Shown here: positions 50,434 through 64,000 of the stretch, in pieces
Position numbering within the stretch: position 1 is the first letter of the stretch
How the letters are laid out: each line of letters starts with the position of its first letter
DNA from: Epibacterium sp.
GTDB taxonomy: Bacteria > Pseudomonadota > Alphaproteobacteria > Rhodobacterales > Rhodobacteraceae
Direction: 5' to 3'
DNA: 64,000 bases
NCBI GenBank assembly: GCA_048263945.1
Contig: JBLXDQ010000004.1
Span: forward strand, 229,975-293,974
Translations under genes and position numbers: made by a program
Notes under the pieces: model-generated
What the model saw: only the letters and a program-made list of their open reading frames with translations
Told to the model about the DNA's origin: nothing
The model's database searches: none

Positions 50434-51378
50434 ATGCTCTTTGCCTATACGATGGAAAATACTTCCCTGACCCGCCTTCCCGAGGGTGCCCCGCTGGAGG
50501 AGGCCCATTGGGTCGACCTCTACCGGCCGCAGCCCGAGCAGGTGGCGCGGGTCAAGGCGCTGGGGTTCGAAGTGCCGACCCTTGCGGATATGGAGGAGAT
50601 CGAGATCTCCAATCGGTTCTATCGTGCGGGCAAAGTGGATGTACTGACCGTTTCGCTCCCGGGGCTTGATCCCGACAAGCACCGCACCTTTGGCCCCGTT
50701 GCCTGCCTTCTGGGGCCGGACCGACTGGTTACTGTGCGCTACCACGCGCCGCGCCCGTTCGAGACGCTGCCTTCCCATGTGGAAGGCAGCAATGCCGGTT
50801 GCAAGACCGTCTCGCATCTCTTCCTCACCCTGATGGAGGAGATCGTGGCGCGGATGGCGGACCTGTTGGAAACCGTCGGGCGCGAGCTTGACGACAGCGC
50901 GGCCAAACTCTTTGACGACAAGGGCGTTTGGGGCGACGGGCTGGAGGTGATGCTCAGGGACGTGGGCCGCGCGGGCGAGATGTTGGCCAAGTATCGCCAA
51001 TGTTTGCTGACGCTGGAGCGGGCGCTTTCAACCTTTGGCGTCACCCATGATGCCAAGGACCTGCGCAGCTACACCAAGGCGACGGGCCGCGACATTCAGG
51101 CGCTCTTGGTCCATGCGGATTTCCTCTCTGGCCGGATCGCGCATCTCACGGATGTGATCCTCGGCATGGTCACGCTGGAACAGGGCATCACCGGGCGCAT
51201 CGTCTCGGTGGTGGCCGTGATCTTCCTGCCGCCGACGCTGGTGGCCTCTGTCTATGGCATGAACTTTGAATATCTGCCCGGCCTGCATTCCGATTACGGC
51301 TGGATGATCGCCACCGGCCTGATGGGGCTGTCGGCGCTGGGCACGCTTCTCTTCTTTCGTTGGAAAGGCTGGCTATGA
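50434..51378 (+). CDS. corA: CorA-family Mg2+/Co2+ transporter inserted in the phn operon
   Basis: [36 protein letters not shown] (GMN signature) and two C-terminal TMs. Confidence 0.9.
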
Positions 51379-54742: not shown

Positions 54743-55222
54743 TCAGTCGGCGCGGTAGAACATGTAGCGGCCTTCGGGGATACCCGCAGGGCCGTCGATC
54801 TCGGTGAGGCCGACCAAGGGCTGGCCGGAGATCACAATGCCTCCCGGCGCCATCACACGCGCCAGCGCGGGGGAGAGTTTCGCCGCCTCGGCCACATCCT
54901 TTTCCTTCACGCCAAAGCCGAGGTCGTAGTGGGCCAGCGCCAGTTGGTGACCGTCTTGGGAAAGCCGCGCCAGCATCGGTTCTGCTTCGCCTTGCAGGAA
55001 GTTCTCCTCCGGCGGCACGCAGGAGGGGTGACATTGCAGCACCCGGTCGATGACCCAGACGCGGCGGTCTAGCAGTACTTCGCGCAAATGGTCATAGGTG
55101 CGCCCATTGCCGAGCCCGAGGTCCAGCACGTCACCCTTAACCTCGGCAATCGCCGAAGCGGCCCAGTTCAACCCGTCTCGTTGGGCGGTCAGGCGGCGCA
55201 GCATGCTGTCCAGTCGGCTCAT
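54743..55222 (-). CDS. Small class I SAM-dependent methyltransferase-like protein
   Basis: Start MSRLDSMLRRL at 55222; VLDLGLGNGRTYDHLRE motif I; resembles the Methyltransf_17-type family. Confidence 0.75.
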   Translation of the reverse strand: MSRLDSMLRRLTAQRDGLNWAASAIAEVKGDVLDLGLGNGRTYDHLREVLLDRRVWVIDRVLQCHPSCVPPEENFLQGEAEPMLARLSQDGHQLALAHYDLGFGVKEKDVAEAAKLSPALARVMAPGGIVISGQPLVGLTEIDGPAGIPEGRYMFYRAD

Positions 55223-55223
55223 C

Positions 55224-55982
55224 TCAGGCAATCCTTTCATTGTAACGCCACGGCGTCGAGGGGCCTGCAAGCAGGCGGGAGAGCAGGCGCTCGGAGAAGT
55301 CCCAAATCGCTGCATCATGCACCAGATGGTGGGTCAGATACCCCAAGGGTTCGGCCCGGTCCTCTTGTCCCAAGCGCCGTGCCTGCAAGCGGAGAACCAG
55401 TGTGGCGAGGATTTGTTCCTCGGCCAACAGCCCGCGAGAGCCCTTCCAGTCGATCGGGTCGATATGGGTGTTGATCTGAACCAATCCCGGCGCCGCATTC
55501 ACACGTTTGCGTGGCCCGAAGGTCGATAGTGCGGAGAAATCCAATCCGGCCAGCCAGGGCAGAAGCGCCGGCGACACGCGGTTCCAAGGCGGCACGAACA
55601 TCGGTTGCAGGCGGGAACCAAACATCTGCTTGAGGCGGGCCATACCTGCCTCGGCCTCATTCAGCGCCTCATCAACCGGGCGGGTACTGCCAAACTCGCA
55701 TTTCTTCTTGTCGGCAGGCGCGTGGTTTTCATGCGCCCATCCATGCACCACCGGGACCAGATGGGCGGAGTGTTGAACCACATCCGCCAGCTCCGGCGTT
55801 GCCTCTTTGGGGATCACCGCAAGGTGCACCGGCATATCGAGGGTTCGGGCCAGGGCCTCCAGCCGGGTGAGCGCTTCGGACGGGGCGACGGCATCGTCAT
55901 CGCGCCACCACAAGGGCAGATGCAAAGCCTGCGCGGCCCAAAGCTCCAGTTCCGCGTCAAGCGCGTCCCAGCCGTTTGTCAT
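55224..55982 (-). CDS. Polysaccharide deacetylase (CE4/NodB-like) family protein
   Basis: WWRDDD, HGWAH, FVPPWNR and LTHH motifs. Confidence 0.75.
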   Translation of the reverse strand: MTNGWDALDAELELWAAQALHLPLWWRDDDAVAPSEALTRLEALARTLDMPVHLAVIPKEATPELADVVQHSAHLVPVVHGWAHENHAPADKKKCEFGSTRPVDEALNEAEAGMARLKQMFGSRLQPMFVPPWNRVSPALLPWLAGLDFSALSTFGPRKRVNAAPGLVQINTHIDPIDWKGSRGLLAEEQILATLVLRLQARRLGQEDRAEPLGYLTHHLVHDAAIWDFSERLLSRLLAGPSTPWRYNERIA

Positions 55983-57139
55983 GAATGTCTCCCCCGAGCG
56001 TGGCGCTGCACCTCCCCGTGCAACGTTTGCGCAATCTCCACACTTCGGGTGGCTCCGTCAAATTCGAAACCGTCAAGGCTGCGTTGCGGCTCTTGCATGA
56101 CTTTACGCAGGGCGGCGCAGAGCCGGTCCGGGGTCAAGCTGCTGGCGGCCTCAACTGCAAAGCCCGATAGGGACTTCAGGCTTTCGGCCCGCAGGGATTG
56201 CTCGACTTCCTTGCCTGCATCAAAGGGAACCAACACGGCCGGAGTGCCAGATTGCAAGAGGTCCAGCGCGGTGTTGTAGCCACAGAGGCTCACTGAGGCG
56301 GCGGCATGGGGCAGCATGGCGCGGAACTCTGGCCGGGCGGGTTCCAGTTGAGCAGGGGAGGCCGGATCGCGCAGGCGGTCGATCCGCTGGGCCGCGTCGC
56401 TGCCGCCGATCAACAGGCGCCAAGGGTAGTCGGGCATCTGCTTTGCTGCTTCGATCGCGCAGGCATAAAGCGCATCGCCCACGCTGCCACCACCCGCGCT
56501 GACAAGGATTTCGCCCTTGCCCAACCCCTCCGGGTGGGGGGCTGCAGCGGGGGGCGCGACATAGCCTGTGTAGTGCAGCTTGGCCGCCAGCGCCTCGGTC
56601 ACCGGCCAGCTGATGTCGAGCGTGGTGGCTTTGGGGTCTGAATGCACCAAAACGCCGTCGTAATAGGCGGTGATCACGGCCTCCGCCTCTGTGGCCTTTT
56701 TCGGCTTTGAGGGGGGGGCGAGAATATCGCGAATGGAGGAGAGGATCAGCGGGCGTTTGGGCTGCGCATGCGCGGCCTCGAGAAGGGCGTGGAACTCTGC
56801 CTTCAACGTGCGACGGCCAAAGGGGTAGAGTTCAGTGATCAGCACATCCGGCGCACTATCCTCAAGGAGGGTGATGAGCACGGCACGCCGGGCGCTGAGA
56901 TATCTTTCATCCACCGGCGTGCCCTCTGGGCCAAGCAGGCGCGCAAAATCCACCCCGTCCGAGCGCAGCGGCGGCAGCTGCACCAGCGTGATGCCGTCGG
57001 TCGAGAGTTGCGGTGCCGGAAATCCGCCTGAGGCGACGGTGACGAGATGCCCCTTGGCGACAAAAGCGCGTCCCAGCGTGAGAGCGCGGGACAGATGCCC
57101 AGTACCAAGGAGATGGGTGACGACAATCAGAACCTTCAT
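55979..57139 (-). CDS. GT-B glycosyltransferase (GT28 C-terminal-like)
   Basis: MKVLIVVTHLLGTGH, ELYPFGR, HSDP, YTGYV, VSAGGG, SLCGYNT, EQSLRA; ATGA overlaps at both ends. Confidence 0.82.
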   Translation of the reverse strand: MKVLIVVTHLLGTGHLSRALTLGRAFVAKGHLVTVASGGFPAPQLSTDGITLVQLPPLRSDGVDFARLLGPEGTPVDERYLSARRAVLITLLEDSAPDVLITELYPFGRRTLKAEFHALLEAAHAQPKRPLILSSIRDILAPPSKPKKATEAEAVITAYYDGVLVHSDPKATTLDISWPVTEALAAKLHYTGYVAPPAAAPHPEGLGKGEILVSAGGGSVGDALYACAIEAAKQMPDYPWRLLIGGSDAAQRIDRLRDPASPAQLEPARPEFRAMLPHAAASVSLCGYNTALDLLQSGTPAVLVPFDAGKEVEQSLRAESLKSLSGFAVEAASSLTPDRLCAALRKVMQEPQRSLDGFEFDGATRSVEIAQTLHGEVQRHARGRHS

Positions 57140-57720
57140 GGGGCGCGTTTTAACAGACGTATCGGTTCTGGCCATGGGGTCAATTGATCGCCCGCGATCT
57201 CGACCACAAAGAGGCGGTTGCGTTTGATCTGAAACGGGGCGGGGCTGTCGAAGTTCCAGCCATAGGCGCGGGCAAGGATCATCCGCATGATGCCGATATG
57301 GCAGACGGCGACGGTGTCGCGGGTGAGGATGGCGATCCAAGGGGCGATGCGGGTCCAGACCTCCGCCGGGCTCTCGCCGCCGGGGGGGCGGTAGTCCCAG
57401 CCCCACTGTTCGATGTCGCGAAAGCCAGAGGTCGGATCGGCGCGCAAGGTGATGCCGTGCTGGCCTTCCCAATCGCCCCAGTTCATCTCGATCAGGGCCT
57501 TGGTGGTCTGGGGCTCTTGGTCGGTGATCAGTCGAGCGGTCTCTGCCGCGCGCAATAGTGGGCTCGACCAGAGGTGGGCACCGCGCCAACCCTCGGGCAA
57601 GCATTGGGCGGCAAGTTCGGCGCGGGCGGCGGCGTCAAGCGGGATATCGCTGCGCCCCTGGATGCGGCCTGCGCGGTTCCATTCGGTATGGCCATGGCGC
57701 AAGAGGGCGAGGCGGATCAC
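57136..57720 (-). CDS. Histidine phosphatase (phosphoglycerate mutase-like) family protein
   Basis: GTG start; LRHGHT (RHG), SSPLLRA, EMNWGDWEG, GESP, VCHIG. Confidence 0.88.
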   Translation of the reverse strand: MIRLALLRHGHTEWNRAGRIQGRSDIPLDAAARAELAAQCLPEGWRGAHLWSSPLLRAAETARLITDQEPQTTKALIEMNWGDWEGQHGITLRADPTSGFRDIEQWGWDYRPPGGESPAEVWTRIAPWIAILTRDTVAVCHIGIMRMILARAYGWNFDSPAPFQIKRNRLFVVEIAGDQLTPWPEPIRLLKRAP

Positions 57721-58811
57721 GCAGAGCGCTCCAGCAGCGGCGTCAGCGCAGCCCAAAGCGTGGCGCGGGCGGCGGGGCGCAGGTGGCGCGTGGCGATATG
57801 ATCGCGCACCCGCCGTCCGAGAGCTTCGCGTTCATCCGCACTGTCGCGCAGGCGTGCCACCGCTGCCGCAAGCGCCTTGGCGCCGGCTTCGGGGGGCGGG
57901 TAGTCGCCGGGCAAGAGCACGTCGCGCAGGCCGGGACGGTCTTGCGCCACCACCGGCAGGCCGTGGGCCTGCGCCTCAAGGTAGACCATGCCGTAAGCCT
58001 CGTTCACACCGGGCCAGAGGAACAGCGAGGCGCGCTGATAGGCCGCCGCCAAGCCCTCGGCATCGAGCTGACCGAGGAAGGTCACGCGCCCCTCATAGGG
58101 TGCCACAAGCGCCTCCACCTCGGCGCGCGCGGGGCCGTCGCCCGCGATCTCGAGGTGCCAGTCGACCGCGCGCTCTGCCTCGGCGTCGAGATGGCGCAGC
58201 GTCTCGGCGATGAGGGCATAGGAGGCCAGCTTGTCGCCTTGCCGCATCATGCCCACCGCCAGCATAGGCCCCTGCAGCGCACTCGGCTCGGGCAGATCGG
58301 CGCGCGGCAGATAGGGGCGCAGATGCACCAGTTGTTGGCCCTCGGCGCGGTCACGCTCCAGCGTCTCGCGGTCTTGGTCGGTCAGATAGAAGATCACCGC
58401 CGCCTGATCGGCCGCCGCATGGGCCGCTTGTGCGAAATCCGACCAAGGCCCGATCAGTCGCTTGCTCGCACGGGTGCTTTCAATCTGCACGTAAGGGATA
58501 TCCCGCGCGGCCGCCACTTCGGGGCCGATCAGATCGGGGGCCTTGTAGTAATTGTGATAGCTGACCCAGAGGTCGATCTCCGGCAGCTCTTCCAGCAGGC
58601 GTCCCACCTCGCGCGAGGCGCGTTGTTGCAACAATGCCTGCTGGTCGCGGTCGCCCAAGGGTTCGTGCAGGCGCAGCTCAGAGGCCAGCACCACATCCGC
58701 ATCCTCTGCCAGAAGCGCCATCAGGCTCTGCGCCATGGCGCGATCACCGGAGGGGGTCGGATGGGTCGGGGCCTTCATCGGCGCGTAAAAGGCAATCCTC
58801 GGGCGGCTCAT
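57717..58811 (-). CDS. Glycosyltransferase family 4
   Basis: RIAFYAPMK.P.HP.PSGDR, YHNYYKAPD, GMMRQGDK and EAYGMVYLEA (E-x7-E). Confidence 0.85.
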   Translation of the reverse strand: MSRPRIAFYAPMKAPTHPTPSGDRAMAQSLMALLAEDADVVLASELRLHEPLGDRDQQALLQQRASREVGRLLEELPEIDLWVSYHNYYKAPDLIGPEVAAARDIPYVQIESTRASKRLIGPWSDFAQAAHAAADQAAVIFYLTDQDRETLERDRAEGQQLVHLRPYLPRADLPEPSALQGPMLAVGMMRQGDKLASYALIAETLRHLDAEAERAVDWHLEIAGDGPARAEVEALVAPYEGRVTFLGQLDAEGLAAAYQRASLFLWPGVNEAYGMVYLEAQAHGLPVVAQDRPGLRDVLLPGDYPPPEAGAKALAAAVARLRDSADEREALGRRVRDHIATRHLRPAARATLWAALTPLLERSA

Positions 58812-60055
58812 GCGGGCTCCTTTAGCATCGCGGTCAGGCGCGCGTTCAGCTGTGCGATGCCGGGCGCCATGCCAAAATCGGCGCGCAAGCGGTGGAGCGC
58901 GGCCTTGGCCATGGATCTAGCCCCTTCGGGGTCCTGCGCAAGGTGCAGCATCGCGGCGGCCAGCGCCTCGGGCGCGTCCTCGGACAAAAGCCCATGGGTG
59001 CCGCTCTCGATGAACTCCGGGATGGCGGAGACCGGGGTGGAGAGGATCGGCAGGCCCTGCGAGGCGGCCTCCATCAGCACATTGGGCAGCCCGTCGCGGT
59101 CACCATCCGCCGCCACCCGCGAGGGCAGCACAAAGAGGTCGGCGGCGCGCATCGCGGCGATCACCTCAGGCTGATCACAAGCGCCGCGCCAGGTGATGCG
59201 AGGGGCGACACCGGAGTCCTCGGCCATGCCTTGCAGCAGATCGCCAAGGCCGCCGCCACCGATATGGGTCCAGTGCCAGTCGAGATCCGCAGGCAGCAGC
59301 GCCAGCGCGGCGATCAGCCGATCAAAGCCCTTTTTCTCCACCAGACGCCCCACCGACATCATGTGGAACGGGTCTTGTGGTGCGCGGAGTTTACGCTCTG
59401 GCGGGGAGGGAAAGCGGCTGAGGTCGAGCCCGTGGTAGATCAGATCGACCGGGGTGCCTTGGGCCAAATCCTGCAGGTGCTTGGCGCCAAACCCGGTGCA
59501 GGTGGCACCAAAACAGGCGCCATGGCTTTGGTCGGAGAGCTTTTCGCGCAGCTCCCAATCGGGCGAGGTCCAGATGTCCTTGGCATGGGCAGAAAAGCTC
59601 CACGGCAGGTCGCGCATGATGGCGGCATAGCGCGCAACCGAGGCCGGAGTGTGCAGGAAATGCGCGTAAAGGCCGCGCACCTCGGGCGGCAGTTCGGCGG
59701 CCAGCACGCAGGCCTGACCAAAGCGGCGGATGCGGTTGTGGGTCGGATCGCGGCGCAGGTCTGCCCGCCAGATGCGGTAGGCCTCGGCATAGCCCGGCAG
59801 GCGCTGCGCGATGTGGCGCGCGCGATCTAGGCGGGCGGGGTCGTCGTAGAGGTATTCCGGCAGATAATGCACCGGTGCCTGTAGCCTGTCGTGCAGCGGA
59901 TGCGTCTTTTTGTCGGTCGGATGGCGCAGCGACCAGATTTCAAACGGCTGGCCAGCTTCTTCCAGAGCGACGAGTTCCTGCGCAATGAAGGTTTCGGACA
60001 GGCGCGGCCAGCCCTTGACCAGAACCGCCAGCGCGGGCCGCGCGGATGATGTCAT
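58808..60055 (-). CDS. Glycosyltransferase family 4
   Basis: Start MTSSAR at 60055; KGWPRLSETFI, AHFLHTP, SAHAKDIW, VGRLVEKKG, DRDGLPNVLMEA. Confidence 0.88.
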   Translation of the reverse strand: MTSSARPALAVLVKGWPRLSETFIAQELVALEEAGQPFEIWSLRHPTDKKTHPLHDRLQAPVHYLPEYLYDDPARLDRARHIAQRLPGYAEAYRIWRADLRRDPTHNRIRRFGQACVLAAELPPEVRGLYAHFLHTPASVARYAAIMRDLPWSFSAHAKDIWTSPDWELREKLSDQSHGACFGATCTGFGAKHLQDLAQGTPVDLIYHGLDLSRFPSPPERKLRAPQDPFHMMSVGRLVEKKGFDRLIAALALLPADLDWHWTHIGGGGLGDLLQGMAEDSGVAPRITWRGACDQPEVIAAMRAADLFVLPSRVAADGDRDGLPNVLMEAASQGLPILSTPVSAIPEFIESGTHGLLSEDAPEALAAAMLHLAQDPEGARSMAKAALHRLRADFGMAPGIAQLNARLTAMLKEPA

Positions 60056-61272
60056 TCTGCCGCCTCGCGCGGGAGTTGCTGCAGCAGGCTGTTGACGCGG
60101 GTGGTCACGTAATCGAGCCCGTCCAACAAGCCGTCGGAAATGGCTTTCGAGGGGTTTGGCTGTCGGTCTAGCGCGCGAATGGCGCCGATCATCGCCTCCG
60201 GCGTCCAGCCGTCGCGGGTTTCGTCCAGCATGGTCACAAGGCCCAGTTCCTCGGCGCGGCTGGCGCGAATCCATTGCTCGAGCCGGGGCGAGGTGCGCGG
60301 AACGATCACGGCAGGTTTGTCAAAGGATAGAACCTCGCAGAATGTGTTGTAACCGCCCATGCAGATAACCCCCTGTGCGCCGGCAAAGAGGGTTTCGATC
60401 TGGCTCTCGAACCCCACAGCGGTCACCCGGCCATCCAGTTTCGCCACCCGCTCTTCAAAGGCGGCGCGGGTCTCGCCCGACAAGAAGGGGCCGTAGACCA
60501 GCATAGCACGGGGCGCGAGGCTTGGGTCCTGTTCATAGGCGGACAGGGCCAGATCCACCATCATGGCACCATCGCCACCGCCGCCCGGGGTGATCAGCAC
60601 ATAGGGTTGTTTCGGCGGCGGGCCGACTTCGCCCAGGTCCCGGCGCAAATAGCCGGTCCAATGCATCCGCTCTTGTGCGGCTTTGGAGAGGGCGAGACCT
60701 GCGGTGGGATCGTAGATGGAGCGCAGCCCATAGACCCAGATTTCGTCATAAAACTGTTCGGCAGCCTTCAGCGCGCCTTTGCGATCCCATTCGGCGCGCA
60801 GCACTTCGGGTTCGTCCAAAACGTCGCGCAGGCCGAGCACCAGTCGCGCTTTGCCGCGCTCTTGCAGCATCTCGAGTGTCGGCACCAATTCGCCACGAAA
60901 GCCGGTCGGCTCTTTGTCGACGATCAAAACATCAGGGTCGAATTGCTCGGCGGTGGAGCGGATTAGAGCGGCGCGCATCTCGGTGGTTTCTTCGATGCTC
61001 ATGCCCATCGTGCGGCTTGCATAAGAGCCGTCGGCGCGTTTGATGACACCGGGCAGGCGCATATGGTCGACCCGGTTGGGAAAGGCAAAGCGGCCCGCAA
61101 CCGGAGAGCCGGTCAGGATCATCGCTGAGGCCTTCGGGTCCGCAGAGGTCAGGGCCGCCGCCAGCGCGCGGGATCGCCGCAGATGACCAAGTCCAAAGGT
61201 GTCGTGGCTGTAGAACAGAATGCGAGGTCCGCGGGCCGAGGGGCCCATGCCTGGGGTGGTGCTGGCGCTCAT
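60052..61272 (-). CDS. GT-B glycosyltransferase (GT28 C-terminal-like)
   Basis: Start MSAST at 61272; FYSHDTFGLGHLRR, VDKEP, GLRDVLD, TGYL, TPGGGGDG, MGGYNTFCE, PR...RLEQ.IRA. Confidence 0.82.
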   Translation of the reverse strand: MSASTTPGMGPSARGPRILFYSHDTFGLGHLRRSRALAAALTSADPKASAMILTGSPVAGRFAFPNRVDHMRLPGVIKRADGSYASRTMGMSIEETTEMRAALIRSTAEQFDPDVLIVDKEPTGFRGELVPTLEMLQERGKARLVLGLRDVLDEPEVLRAEWDRKGALKAAEQFYDEIWVYGLRSIYDPTAGLALSKAAQERMHWTGYLRRDLGEVGPPPKQPYVLITPGGGGDGAMMVDLALSAYEQDPSLAPRAMLVYGPFLSGETRAAFEERVAKLDGRVTAVGFESQIETLFAGAQGVICMGGYNTFCEVLSFDKPAVIVPRTSPRLEQWIRASRAEELGLVTMLDETRDGWTPEAMIGAIRALDRQPNPSKAISDGLLDGLDYVTTRVNSLLQQLPREAAE

Positions 61273-61695
61273 GCGGGGGCTCGCTTGCTTTGGTCGAGAG
61301 GGGCGACGGAGAGGGGAGATGAGGCGCAAGGAATGAGGCCGGATGCCCGACCTTGCGAGAGGCCCGGTGTCTGATACGACAGGGGGCATGTGCAGCGCCT
61401 GGATCGGGTGGCGCTTTGCGTCTTGGCCATATTCCGCCCCAACGTCCCTGCGGGCGCGCTCCCATTTTGGTTGAACGCGTCCGGATTTCCCATTTCCTCC
61501 GCCCGGTTTTCGCTATGGCTGCGCGGACACGCGGGGCCAGTAACGCGGGCTGTTAAACATCCGTGATATAGCCTGCGCGGCAAGGTCATGCAATCAAACC
61601 CATAAGGTCGCGAGGCGATCAAGCGGCGAAAATCGACATTTGGGCATCGTTTTGGCATATGCTGGCGGGAAAATGCCAAGAGGGAAGGAAAGCCT

Positions 61696-64000
61696 GTGCG
61701 GGGTCTGACACTGGTTCTGCGGCTATGGATGGCCGTGTTTGCACTGAGTCTTTTGACTGCGATCTTCCCGGTGGCGCCGGGTCTGGCGCAGAGTGCGGCG
61801 GCGGATGGTGCGTCCCCGGCGCCGGGGGAGGGGGACACTGTGCCGCAGGCCGGAGCAGAGGCGCTGGCCGCAGCCATCCGACACGCGGCGGAGGCTGGCG
61901 TTGGCGTGGTGATCCTGGATGCGCGCGGGCAGGTCGTCTCGGCTGAGGGTGCGATACCGCAAGCCGGGGCTAGAGAGGCCGCAACTCCCACCCATTCAGA
62001 TGGTGGGGGTATGACGGAGCATCAGGCTGCGTTGATGGGCGGTGCGTCCTCTATGATGAAGGCGCAATCCGAGGTGCGCGAGTTTCGATCCAAGCTGAAA
62101 GAGCGTTTGGAGATCCTGCCCAATTCGCTGATCGAGATGACCTATATCCTGCGGGCCACCAGCCCGGATGGCCGGATTATGACCTATGTGCAGGTCTTGG
62201 TCGTCACCACCATCCTGCTGCTGATCGGGCGCTGGCTGTCGGGGGAGATCTATGGCAAGCGATGGGTCAAGACATTCGTCACCAGTCGCATCGTCGACCG
62301 TCCCGAAGGCTATGCGGGCAAGATGCCTTTTCTGTTCATTCGCTTCGTGGCCGGGGTGGGGGCGACGCTCTTTGCGATGATCTTGTCGGTGCTGATCACC
62401 CTTTTGGTCTTTGGCCCCTCCGGCGATGTGTCGATCGAGTTCACTTCGCTTGCGATCTATACGACCTTCTTTGCGGCTAAGACGATCTCGGATTTGTGGC
62501 GCATGGTGCTGTCGCCCTATCTGCGCCAATACCGCATCCCACATCTGTCCGACCGCGATGCGCGCAGGCTCTATCTCTGGCTGTCGAGCCTTGCGACCTT
62601 TGATATCGCGGCTGTGATGTTTTCGACCTGGGTCCAAGACTTCGGGCTGAACTACAATATGTACGCGCTGACCTATGGCCTCTTGATGCTGGCCTCCTCG
62701 CTGGCCGGGATTCTTTTGGTTCTGGTCAATGCACGCGCTATCAGCGGGGCGATCTGCGACAAGAGCAACGGGCGCGTGGTGGCCTGGCCGAACCGGATCC
62801 TGTCGTGGATTTGGGCGCCGATGGTGATTGCCTATATCGTCTTTGGCTGGCTGGCTCTGGCCTTTGACCTCGTGTTGGAGCGCCCAAGTCCGGTGCCGCC
62901 GAACATCGGGCTCTTTGCCGTTCTGACCTCGATTATCGTGGTCTACGGGCTGATCAACTACGTGATCGAGCAGTTCTTCTCGCGCCCTGTGCGCAGAGTG
63001 CCCAAGCCAGAAGAGGCAGAGGCGGAGACAAAGCCGACGCGAGCTGCGCATCCGATCGCCACCTACAAGGATTTGGCACGCCGAGCGGCAGGTATTCTGG
63101 CCTTTTACGGCGGTTCGATGGCCCTGATCTATGTCTGGGATCCGGAGTTCGCGATCGAGCAGGACACAGTGCCGGACCGTATCGTGGATGTGCTGGTGAT
63201 CCTCTTTATCGGCTATCTGGTTTTCCACGTTGCGCGGATCTGGATTGATAGCAAGATCGAGGAAGAAGAGAGCGATACCGAGGTCGAAGGCGAGTTGGGC
63301 GACGAAGGCGGGGGCGCGAGCGCAAGCCGCTTGGCGACCCTCCTGCCGCTGTTCCGAGGGGCCATTCTTGCGGTGGTGATCGTGAGCATCATCCTCATCG
63401 TGCTGATGGAGCTGGGCATCAACGTGAGCCCGCTCTTTGCTGGCGCCGGCGTTGTGGGGCTGGCGGTTGGGTTCGGCTCGCAGACCCTGGTGCGGGATAT
63501 CTTCTCCGGCGCCTTCTTCCTGATCGATGATGCGTTTCGGCGCGGCGAGTATATCGACATCGGTAGCGTCAAAGGGACGGTGGAGAAGATCTCGGTGCGC
63601 TCCTTCCAGCTGCGGCACCATCTGGGTGCGCTGCACACCATCCCCTTTGGCGAAATCCAGGTGCTGACCAACTATTCGCGCGATTGGGTGATCATGAAGC
63701 TGCCCTTGCGGGTGACCTATGACACGGATGTGGAAAAGGTGCGCAAGTTGGTGAAGAAGCTGGGCCAAGAGCTGCTCGATGATCCGGTGATCGGTCACAA
63801 CTTTATCCAGCCGTTGAAGTCGCAGGGTGTGATCGAAATGCAGGATTCCGCGATGATCATCCGGGTGAAGTTCATGACCAAACCGGGCGATCAATGGCTG
63901 GTGCGCAAAAAGGTGTTTGAGGAAATCCGAGCGCTGTTTCATCGCGAAGGGATCAAATTTGCTCATCGCGAGGTGACAGTGCGTGTGGTCGATGACAGCA
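61696..64000 (+). CDS. Large MscS-family mechanosensitive channel (3' end beyond the window)
   Basis: Hand-translated open frame from GTG 61696 to the window end (over 768 codons): signal peptide, periplasmic region, multiple TMs, then AGAGVVGLAVGFGSQTLVRDIFSG, FRRGEYID, GTVEKISVRS and IPFGEI..LTNYSRDW. Absent from the ORF track because there is no stop in the window. Confidence 0.88.
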   Translation, partial: MRGLTLVLRLWMAVFALSLLTAIFPVAPGLAQSAAADGASPAPGEGDTVPQAGAEALAAAIRHAAEAGVGVVILDARGQVVSAEGAIPQAGAREAATPTHSDGGGMTEHQAALMGGASSMMKAQSEVREFRSKLKERLEILPNSLIEMTYILRATSPDGRIMTYVQVLVVTTILLLIGRWLSGEIYGKRWVKTFVTSRIVDRPEGYAGKMPFLFIRFVAGVGATLFAMILSVLITLLVFGPSGDVSIEFTSLAIYTTFFAAKTISDLWRMVLSPYLRQYRIPHLSDRDARRLYLWLSSLATFDIAAVMFSTWVQDFGLNYNMYALTYGLLMLASSLAGILLVLVNARAISGAICDKSNGRVVAWPNRILSWIWAPMVIAYIVFGWLALAFDLVLERPSPVPPNIGLFAVLTSIIVVYGLINYVIEQFFSRPVRRVPKPEEAEAETKPTRAAHPIATYKDLARRAAGILAFYGGSMALIYVWDPEFAIEQDTVPDRIVDVLVILFIGYLVFHVARIWIDSKIEEEESDTEVEGELGDEGGGASASRLATLLPLFRGAILAVVIVSIILIVLMELGINVSPLFAGAGVVGLAVGFGSQTLVRDIFSGAFFLIDDAFRRGEYIDIGSVKGTVEKISVRSFQLRHHLGALHTIPFGEIQVLTNYSRDWVIMKLPLRVTYDTDVEKVRKLVKKLGQELLDDPVIGHNFIQPLKSQGVIEMQDSAMIIRVKFMTKPGDQWLVRKKVFEEIRALFHREGIKFAHREVTVRVVDDS

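Follow-up and report, generated by a model that had tools for sequence, protein, structure and literature searches.

The question raised by positions 54743-61272 of the 64,000-nucleotide stretch of Epibacterium sp. DNA analysed here (contig JBLXDQ010000004.1; the whole stretch is referred to as the window) is what product is made by seven closely packed genes for sugar-handling enzymes and where in the cell that product acts. A preliminary description of the operon had found no characterised pathway to match this gene set. Sequence comparison provides such a match: the operon corresponds to the red/opt/PPP cluster of Alphaproteobacteria, of which it is the Roseobacteraceae ortholog, its genes being orthologous to the PPP genes of Sinorhizobium meliloti and the red genes of Rhizobium etli. 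The cluster is known genetically. The seven genes, here called g1 to g7, are the following (GT, glycosyltransferase; aa, amino acids).

60052..61272, minus strand: g1, RedA-type GT-B glycosyltransferase (COG4671; GT1/GT28-like), 406 aa
58808..60055, minus strand: g2, RedB-type GT4 glycosyltransferase, 415 aa
57717..58811, minus strand: g3, second GT4 glycosyltransferase, SMb21252 ortholog, 364 aa
57136..57720, minus strand: g4, branch-1 histidine phosphatase, 194 aa, GTG start
55979..57139, minus strand: g5, second RedA-type GT-B glycosyltransferase, SMb21266 ortholog, 386 aa
55224..55982, minus strand: g6, CE4-like metal-dependent deacetylase, SMb21253 ortholog, 252 aa
54743..55222, minus strand: g7, small S-adenosylmethionine (SAM)-dependent methyltransferase (PF12692), 159 aa

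The sequence bears out the seven minus-strand open reading frames (ORFs) of the preliminary description, with the starts, the five 4-bp overlaps and the 1-bp gap claimed there. ATGA overlaps can be read at 60055-60052, 58811-58808, 57139-57136 and 55982-55979 and a GTGA overlap at 57720-57717, while a single base, 55223, separates the stop of g6 from the ATG of g7. None of the seven proteins has a transmembrane-like segment, the highest Kyte-Doolittle mean over 19 residues being 1.41; the seven enzymes are soluble.

The orthology rests on each of five genes separately. Aligned over more than 80% of its length, the g1 protein shares 44-48% identity with the redA products of S. meliloti and R. 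etli, and UniProt Q9X6W3, 'RedA' of S. meliloti, falls in the same 90% cluster. On pSymB of S. meliloti 2011 the tblastn match of g1 spans 837172-838173. These coordinates coincide with those of redA (SMb21264, 837144-838358), so that the match is redA; redB (SMb21265) lies at 838365-839612 and SMb21266 at 839609-840796, according to the supplementary table of Travin et al (2023; PMC10128002). The g2 protein shares 48-49% identity with RedB in R. etli and R. leguminosarum, where the third GT is 37-38% identical to g5. In the annotation of R. etli CIAT 652, redA and redB, the homologs of g1 and g2, stand downstream of an oligopeptide-type ABC importer. On the annotated S. meliloti pSymB, g3 matches the SMb21252-type GT (41% identity over 359 aa, E 1e-59) and g6 the adjacent SMb21253-type protein (37% over 250 aa, E 2e-49). 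By these alignments g1, g2, g3, g5 and g6 are shown to be orthologs of RedA (SMb21264), RedB (SMb21265), SMb21252, SMb21266 and SMb21253, respectively.

A strong phenotype is attached to these orthologs in S. meliloti. In the study by Travin et al (2023; PMC10128002), smb21252-smb21271 are named for a phazolicin-protecting polysaccharide (PPP), phazolicin being a ribosome-targeting peptide antibiotic. In transposon sequencing (Tn-seq) under phazolicin, insertions in SMb21252, 21253, 21259, 21264, 21265, 21266, 21269 and 21271 were depleted with log2 fold-changes of -3.5 to -5.3, and the S. meliloti gene for an ABC-exporter-like protein, discussed below, was itself a strong hit (PMC10128002). 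Insertion mutants of smb21252 and smb21265 had a minimum inhibitory concentration of phazolicin of 0.18 instead of 1.47 μg/mL, which makes them 8-fold more sensitive (PMC10128002). Searches of the literature by the names COG4671, Methyltransf_17, rhizobial redA/redB, TM1040_3688-3693 and mlr3247-3251 found nothing relevant. For R. etli, Vos and colleagues reportedly found in 2007 (in Environ Microbiol) that nitrogen fixation in symbiosis reaches its full level, and osmotolerance and the response to bacitracin and ampicillin are normal, only with opt-redA-redB. Two further leads were rejected: SMb21188-21191, considered as a counterpart of the cluster, is a separate msbA2 operon at 938 kb on pSymB, where red lies at 837 kb, and a paper on the Clr regulon, considered as a source, concerns the neighbouring nodP2-smb21248 region.

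The preliminary description had proposed a search for conserved neighbourhoods, and this search found the gene order kept across Alphaproteobacteria. The order g1-g6 is preserved across families and orders, so that the arrangement is far beyond chance. On the megaplasmid of Ruegeria sp. TM1040 the operon and its surroundings are arranged as in the window, and Azospirillum plasmids carry an importer together with g1-g6. Around distant homologs of g5 we compared 52 loci of at least 18 kb from marine alphaproteobacteria (Sneathiella, Oceanibacterium and Rhodospirillaceae-like metagenome-assembled genomes). Their layout places the methyltransferase and a long exporter-like gene on one strand and g1-g6, a fused ATPase, an SBP_bac_5 binding protein and two permeases on the other. 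Each of g2-g6, as well as the exporter-like gene and all four genes of the importer, is found in 51 or 52 of the 52 loci, g1 in 34 and the methyltransferase in 27. Of 401 alphaproteobacterial genomes sampled evenly, 125 (from 91 of 308 genera) carry a member of the g6 family and 144 one of the g5 family, the matches to the two being adjacent wherever the listed coordinates were compared. The cluster is thus present in about a third of the sampled alphaproteobacterial genera, among them the abundant marine roseobacters, Azospirillum and model rhizobia.

Several loci depart from this arrangement. Sneathiella loci (L032, L038, L041, L046, L050, L051 and others) keep the exporter-like gene, g2-g6 and the importer and have no g1 between the first of these and g2. 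In another roseobacter genus (L016, G021:C22:104000-123000) the cluster is split, with g1-g3 on one strand and g4-g7 on the other; a second Methyltransf_17 paralog precedes g4-g7, and the halves are separated by an MscS gene and the entire importer. Outside the class, the conjugative IncF plasmid pCFSAN004180G of E. coli (L110, NZ_CP012500.1 152781-171914) encodes homologs of g1 and g2 that are 34% identical, along with a second GT4, an ABC exporter, two aminoglycoside-phosphotransferase-like kinases, an alginate-export-family (AlgE-like) porin and a sugar dehydrogenase. This locus is a distant gammaproteobacterial relative, with kinases where the roseobacter operon has a phosphatase.

The enzyme classes give the first indication of what is made. 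Both g1 and g5 match the Pfam model Glyco_tran_28_C (25.7 and 30.9 bits, cut-off 22 bits). This likeness to GT28 is limited to the C-terminal domain model, which is barely over its cut-off, and matches to the MurG equivalog reach 20-24 bits where 250 would be required. The AlphaFold model of g1 (pLDDT 83.7) has a GT-B fold with GT1 enzymes of the UGT/CalG type as its nearest structures, and g5 is a full-length paralog of g1 (hhalign probability 99.9) whose family profile matches YjiC and MurG in the C-domain only. The two share an N-terminal GxGHL(R/S)R motif as well as GGGG and GGYNT. Sequence searches of the PDB with g1, g5 and g6 found no close relative.

For g2, g3 and g7 the Pfam matches agree with the preliminary assignments to GT4 and to the SAM methyltransferases. 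Glycos_transf_1 and Glyco_trans_1_4 are matched by g2 and g3, with Glycos_transf_1 the match of g2, and the nearest models to g2 in an NCBIfam scan are EpsE and WcaL. The nearest PDB entries to g3 are the sucrose-phosphate synthase Tll1590 (6kih), MshA, PimA and BshA, and MshA is also among the nearest solved relatives of g2. The g7 protein belongs to Methyltransf_17 (247 bits, E 1e-73) and matches PDB entry 3IHT (E 1e-25); its counterpart in other orders lies on the opposite strand, beyond the exporter-like gene.

The two hydrolases were also correctly recognised, as far as sequence and predicted structure can tell. The g4 protein matches His_Phos_1 (PF00300) at 132 bits, staying below the cut-offs of all NCBIfam equivalogs including CobC, and its catalytic set is intact: R8, H9, G10, R57, E78 and H141, which make up the RHG motif with the second Arg, the Glu and the second His, are invariant in 17 family members. 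Its nearest PDB entries are alpha-ribazole-phosphate phosphatases, followed by the glucosyl-3-phosphoglycerate phosphatase GpgP (4pz9). No Pfam or NCBIfam model matches g6. Its AlphaFold model (pLDDT 96.7) gives Foldseek matches of probability 1.0 to the CE4 enzymes 2cc0, 5lgc, 2c1g and 8t0j, and the matches include CE4 esterases, peptidoglycan and chitin deacetylases and ArnD. The residues invariant in the family are D28-D30 (DDD), H80 and H84 (HGxxH), H173 and D175 (HxD) and H218-H219 (HH). On the basis of the model, g6 is a distant CE4 member with a predicted NodB-type (beta/alpha) barrel, an Asp-His-His metal site and the Asp and His expected for catalysis.

From these assignments and the transport genes described below, we consider it probable that the red/PPP operon as a whole builds a short envelope glycan that is exported and recaptured; we favour a small amino-oligosaccharide assembled on a phosphorylated primer. 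In this scheme the soluble enzymes would assemble a short glycan or glycoside at the cytoplasmic face. The retaining GT4 g3 would transfer an N-acetyl-hexosamine to a phosphorylated acceptor, g4 would strip the phosphate from the product, and g6 would remove the acetyl group by de-N-acetylation; g2 and the inverting GT1-like paralogs g1 and g5 would attach further sugars and g7 would methylate the glycan. The product would cross the inner membrane aided by the exporter-like protein and, once in the periplasm or envelope, would serve as a barrier or in osmotic stress, and it or its fragments would be recaptured by an Opp-type importer. A defined short glycan is favoured over a long repeat polymer because two GT4s, two GT1-like enzymes and a methyltransferase are present and no priming transferase, flippase or polymerase is seen. 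The genes for g3 and g4 are joined by the GTGA overlap and g5 sits between g4 and g6; by analogy with its relatives the trio g3, g4 and g6 fits an intermediate that is phosphorylated, then dephosphorylated and then de-N-acetylated. The earlier suggestion of a glycoside that is dephosphorylated, deacetylated and methylated would, by the same analogy, be plausible. The product had also been taken to stay in the cytoplasm. The solubility of all the enzymes is in keeping with this, but the tie of the orthologs to an envelope barrier, the exporter-like protein and the importer make it doubtful.

The importer lies about 5 kb beyond the operon, past an MscS gene and a CoA-transferase gene (G000:C4:296020-301997), and consists of a fused ATPase, an SBP_bac_5 binding protein and two permeases. 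It is a member of the Opp/Yej family whose fused ATPase is YejF-like, and the binding protein shares 46-53% identity with its cluster-linked counterparts in genome G036, Azospirillum, R. etli and S. meliloti. The nearest solved binding protein is the large-cleft OppA of T. maritima (5IPW), the second nearest the pectin-oligosaccharide binder SPH1118. An importer of this family, whose nearest relative has a cleft suited to long peptides, could instead bring in a peptide or muropeptide for modification by the GTs, in glycopeptide formation or cell-wall recycling; R. etli opt mutants reportedly grow poorly on oligopeptides and are more resistant to bacitracin. We regard this as very improbable. 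The cluster has no peptide-ligase or amidase genes, and SPH1118 binds unsaturated trigalacturonate and other oligogalacturonides, not peptides (PMC9314435). Moreover, in the part of the supplementary Tn-seq table considered here the importer genes are not among the hits, whereas the biosynthetic genes all are (PMC10128002). Judged from its relatives, an oligosaccharide ligand for the binding protein is plausible.

The exporter-like protein (L107:15573-18677, which is G000:C4:308572-311676) has 1034 aa, with an ABC_membrane domain, a split nucleotide-binding domain (NBD) and a C-terminal cNMP_binding domain for cyclic nucleotide monophosphates (cNMP). It is the sole strong match to the cluster-adjacent gene of the distant genomes G036, G039 and G033, and its distance from the cluster within the genus stays at 11-17 kb; the linkage is looser in the roseobacter than in other orders. 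It matches MsbA, HepA, PglK and ChvA models. Four copies were compared (L107:15573-18677, L011:4257-6887, L102:13804-16518 and L103:14556-17267). In these cluster-linked proteins the ATP motifs are decayed and an insert of about 280 aa splits the NBD; in the roseobacter copies the motifs are wholly lost. Going by its motifs, the roseobacter copy cannot be an ordinary ATP-driven pump. The cNMP domain is fused to the exporter-like protein in roseobacters and is a small separate neighbouring protein in rhizobia.

Such an MsbA/PglK-like ABC protein could also export a conventional surface polymer, a capsule, exopolysaccharide (EPS) or lipopolysaccharide (LPS) side chain, assembled on a lipid carrier primed elsewhere. 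The resemblance to MsbA, HepA and PglK and that of g2 to EpsE and WcaL are in favour of this, and the E. coli plasmid relative comes with its AlgE-like porin and sugar dehydrogenase. The S. meliloti cluster adjoins a large surface-polysaccharide region (sugar transferase, export protein, PIG-L deacetylase and aminotransferase), and Travin et al name the product an envelope polysaccharide (PMC10128002). However, no priming transferase, Wzx, Wzy, Wzz or KpsMT is present at 44.7-64 kb of the window or in the annotated or Pfam-scanned loci. Neither a priming transferase nor a flippase, ABC-2 exporter or polymerase was found in the TM1040, Azospirillum, R. etli and R. leguminosarum loci or in the flanks of G036, the 52 marine loci having been screened for cluster components only. 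In addition, a soluble phosphatase and a dedicated importer are foreign to such pathways, the ATP sites of the ABC protein are degenerate, and g1 and g5 are nearer to small-molecule GT1 enzymes than to MurG. A conventional surface polymer thus seems unlikely. The statement in the preliminary description that flippase, polymerase and priming transferase are missing holds for 44.7-64 kb of the window, but the orthologous Opp importer and exporter-like gene lie just outside. It had allowed that export genes located elsewhere would overturn its view, and in these two components such genes were in part found. Its interpretation was half right, having missed a known, genetically studied cluster and the transport components beyond the window.

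On the side of g1, the operon is flanked by a gene for a mechanosensitive channel:

61696..64000, plus strand: MscS-family mechanosensitive channel with Pfam MS_channel domains, divergent from g1, more than 768 aa, running off the window

Five other roseobacter genomes, from three further genera, TM1040 and one member of the same genus, have the channel gene in the same divergent position beside g1. On S. meliloti pSymB an MscS-family gene (L121:8608-10728), whose product is 43.5% identical to the window channel over 278 aa, stands directly upstream of the SMb21252-type GT. In the 52 marine loci, which are from other orders, no such gene was found. The channel may be functionally linked to the glycan.

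With such a channel next to the cluster in roseobacters and S. meliloti, the product might be a cytoplasmic compatible-solute glycoside, made by a sugar-phosphate synthase/phosphatase pair and then decorated, which MscS would release on osmotic downshift and the ABC importer recapture. Cyanobacteria recapture leaked glucosylglycerol in a comparable way, and R. etli opt mutants are reported, again by Vos and colleagues in 2007, to be less osmotolerant. All of the enzymes are soluble, the GT4 and the histidine phosphatase are translationally coupled, g4 resembles GpgP, g3 resembles sucrose-phosphate synthase (SPS) and MshA, g1 has the GT1 fold of small-molecule enzymes, and the exporter-like protein is without ATPase motifs. 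Nevertheless, we think a compatible solute quite unlikely: four GTs with a deacetylase and a methyltransferase exceed any known compatible-solute pathway. In S. meliloti the phenotype of the mutants, seen with an imported peptide antibiotic, is one of the envelope barrier; the cluster there includes a polysaccharide lyase and a sugar dehydrogenase, both required, and the exporter-like gene is a strong Tn-seq hit (PMC10128002).

Another, more elaborate proposal, which we put forward tentatively and hold to be rather unlikely, is that red/PPP, instead of producing a polymer of capsule type, runs a regulated cycle of a small periplasmic amino-oligosaccharide made on a phosphorylated primer by the soluble GT1-like and GT4 enzymes, a functional analogue of the osmoregulated periplasmic glucans. 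The product would leave by way of an ATPase-dead, cyclic-nucleotide-gated protein of exporter fold, be vented or balanced by a dedicated MscS channel and be recaptured by an Opp importer of oligosaccharide type, and in roseobacters its synthesis would be set by a leader ORF.

A number of points weigh against the short, exported and recaptured envelope glycan that we prefer. We infer the donor sugars, the acceptor and the order of the steps, and the 'short glycan' is likewise our own inference. The likeness of g3 to SPS and MshA is restricted to the nucleotide-sugar domain. The roseobacter exporter-like gene is 17 kb from the operon, and the Walker A motif of the protein is degenerate, reading GSSGSGKE, GPNGSGAE and GGTSGGGE in other copies and APSEEDRR in the roseobacter one, with the signature and Walker B motifs likewise decayed; ATP-driven export is doubtful because these motifs are degenerate and, in the roseobacter copy, wholly lost. 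The nearest relative of the importer binding protein, 5IPW, is annotated as a peptide binder, and the R. etli opt importer reportedly takes up oligopeptides. The S. meliloti cluster has no histidine phosphatase and has a metallo-beta-lactamase-fold hydrolase nearby instead, so the step through a phosphorylated intermediate is not universal. It counts here as well that the importer genes are missing from the Tn-seq hits within the portion of the supplementary table considered above, and the word 'polysaccharide' is a conjecture of Travin et al (PMC10128002).

How the operon is expressed is suggested by the region upstream of g1, where two features can be recognised:

61566..61593, minus strand: promoter-like element (TTGCAT, 16 nt, CTATAT), about 290 nt upstream of g1, picked out by its conservation
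61269..61430, minus strand: upstream ORF (uORF) of 53 codons, MAKTQSATR...SKRAPA, whose TGA overlaps the ATG of g1 (ATGA); a conserved leader of about 135 nt precedes it

A block reading TGATTGCA...CTATA is kept in 12 of 16 aligned roseobacter upstream regions; a generic sigma-70 scan did not call the element. The uORF is open in all nine genomes compared within the genus, which is weak evidence in itself in this GC-rich DNA, where the other frames hold just 1 and 6 stops. Its length is 93, 150, 150, 153, 156, 159, 162, 216 or 249 nt, divisible by 3 in every genome, with conserved ends and a middle that cannot be aligned. Since the variation in length preserves the frame, the comparison argues that the uORF is translated and coupled to g1, the start of which has no Shine-Dalgarno sequence. 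This frame-conserved, coupled uORF appears to be new in the present analysis and appears to extend the coupling chain to eight ORFs. Expression would then start at the conserved promoter about 290 nt upstream and run through the translated leader ORF, stop-start coupled to g1. An invariant GCCATA in the leader could pair with UAUGGC of the uORF start. Rfam gave no credible match to the leader and the RNAalifold covariation term is about 0, so that no riboswitch is claimed. The uORF was also considered as the precursor of a glycosylated ribosomally synthesised and post-translationally modified peptide, and this was rejected as it is missing upstream of rhizobial g1 and its middle is conserved in neither sequence nor length; rhizobial redA starts within about 80 bp after the permease gene.

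Past the other end, g7, the operon is flanked by the phn C-P lyase operon (phnI, phnJ, phnK, phnL, phnN, DUF1045 and phnM in Pfam). A functional tie to this operon or to phosphate limitation was rejected, the adjacency being confined to the genus of Epibacterium sp. Within the phn operon a gene for a CorA-like Mg2+ transporter (window 50434-51378) separates the phnK-like from the phnL-like ABC ATPase gene; TM1040 has no such insert, its phnK and phnL being direct neighbours. Beyond the channel gene, the CoA-transferase (L107:1660-3024, G000:C4:294659-296023) is a family III enzyme with an N-terminal extension of about 190 aa, and its gene shares 4 bp with that of the last importer permease. 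The enzyme is found in this genus (genome of the window, TM1040 and G014) and is missing from G021, Azospirillum and the rhizobia.

The cluster has a strong effect on how well S. meliloti tolerates a ribosome-targeting peptide antibiotic. Knowledge of the product would account for a trait, of the envelope or of osmotic stress, that symbionts and marine heterotrophs have in common, and would also reveal the role of the ATPase-dead, cNMP-linked protein of ABC fold. With its seven enzymes, including the histidine phosphatase that rhizobia lack, the roseobacter operon is a compact template for heterologous expression and chemistry.

Parallels to the operon can be drawn among several known systems. 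The mycobacterial methylglucose polysaccharide pathway, which the preliminary description had named, is alike in enzyme classes only: no GT81 or glucan-enzyme match exists among g1-g7 and no acyltransferase is present. SPS with its phosphatase (SPP) and the GpgS-GpgP pair resemble g3-g4 in that a GT gene is coupled to a phosphatase gene, and GpgP (4pz9) and Tll1590 (6kih) are among the nearest relatives. However, GpgS belongs to GT81 and SPP to the HAD family, and these systems have one or two GTs and neither deacetylase, exporter-like protein nor envelope phenotype. The early mycothiol pathway follows the order of g3, g4 and g6, with MshA (a GT4 acting on inositol-1-phosphate), the MshA2 phosphatase and the MshB deacetylase. 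MshB, on the other hand, belongs to the LmbE family and not to CE4, and the operon, which has no inositol-phosphate synthase, Cys ligase or acetyltransferase, has three further GTs, a methyltransferase and transporters; the likeness in sequence is confined to the donor-binding domain.

Closer to the cluster in organisation are cyclic beta-glucan synthesis (NdvA/ChvA) and the S. meliloti msbA2 operon (SMb21188-21191), where soluble or peripheral GTs are paired with a protein of type IV ABC-exporter fold and which have roles in osmotic adaptation, antibiotic tolerance and symbiosis. The red/PPP cluster differs from both in its locus, degenerate ATP sites, insert of about 280 aa, cNMP link and dedicated importer. 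In R. etli and R. leguminosarum the opt-red region consists of the importer followed by RedA, RedB, the RedA paralog, the long exporter-like gene and a small cNMP-binding protein, with no homolog of g3, g4 or g6 within 10 kb. The closest counterpart is the PPP cluster of S. meliloti, with orthologs of g1, g2, g3, g5 and g6, the same Opp-type importer, the exporter-like protein with its cNMP-binding partner, and an MscS-family channel adjoining the GT4/deacetylase pair. A class I SAM methyltransferase is annotated there on the opposite strand after the third GT. The S. meliloti cluster is spread over about 23 kb and has an extra adenylate cyclase, polysaccharide lyase, sugar dehydrogenase and FkbM-type methyltransferase, whereas in the roseobacter the seven enzymes are encoded in one overlapping operon with a leader ORF and the cNMP domain is fused to the exporter-like protein.

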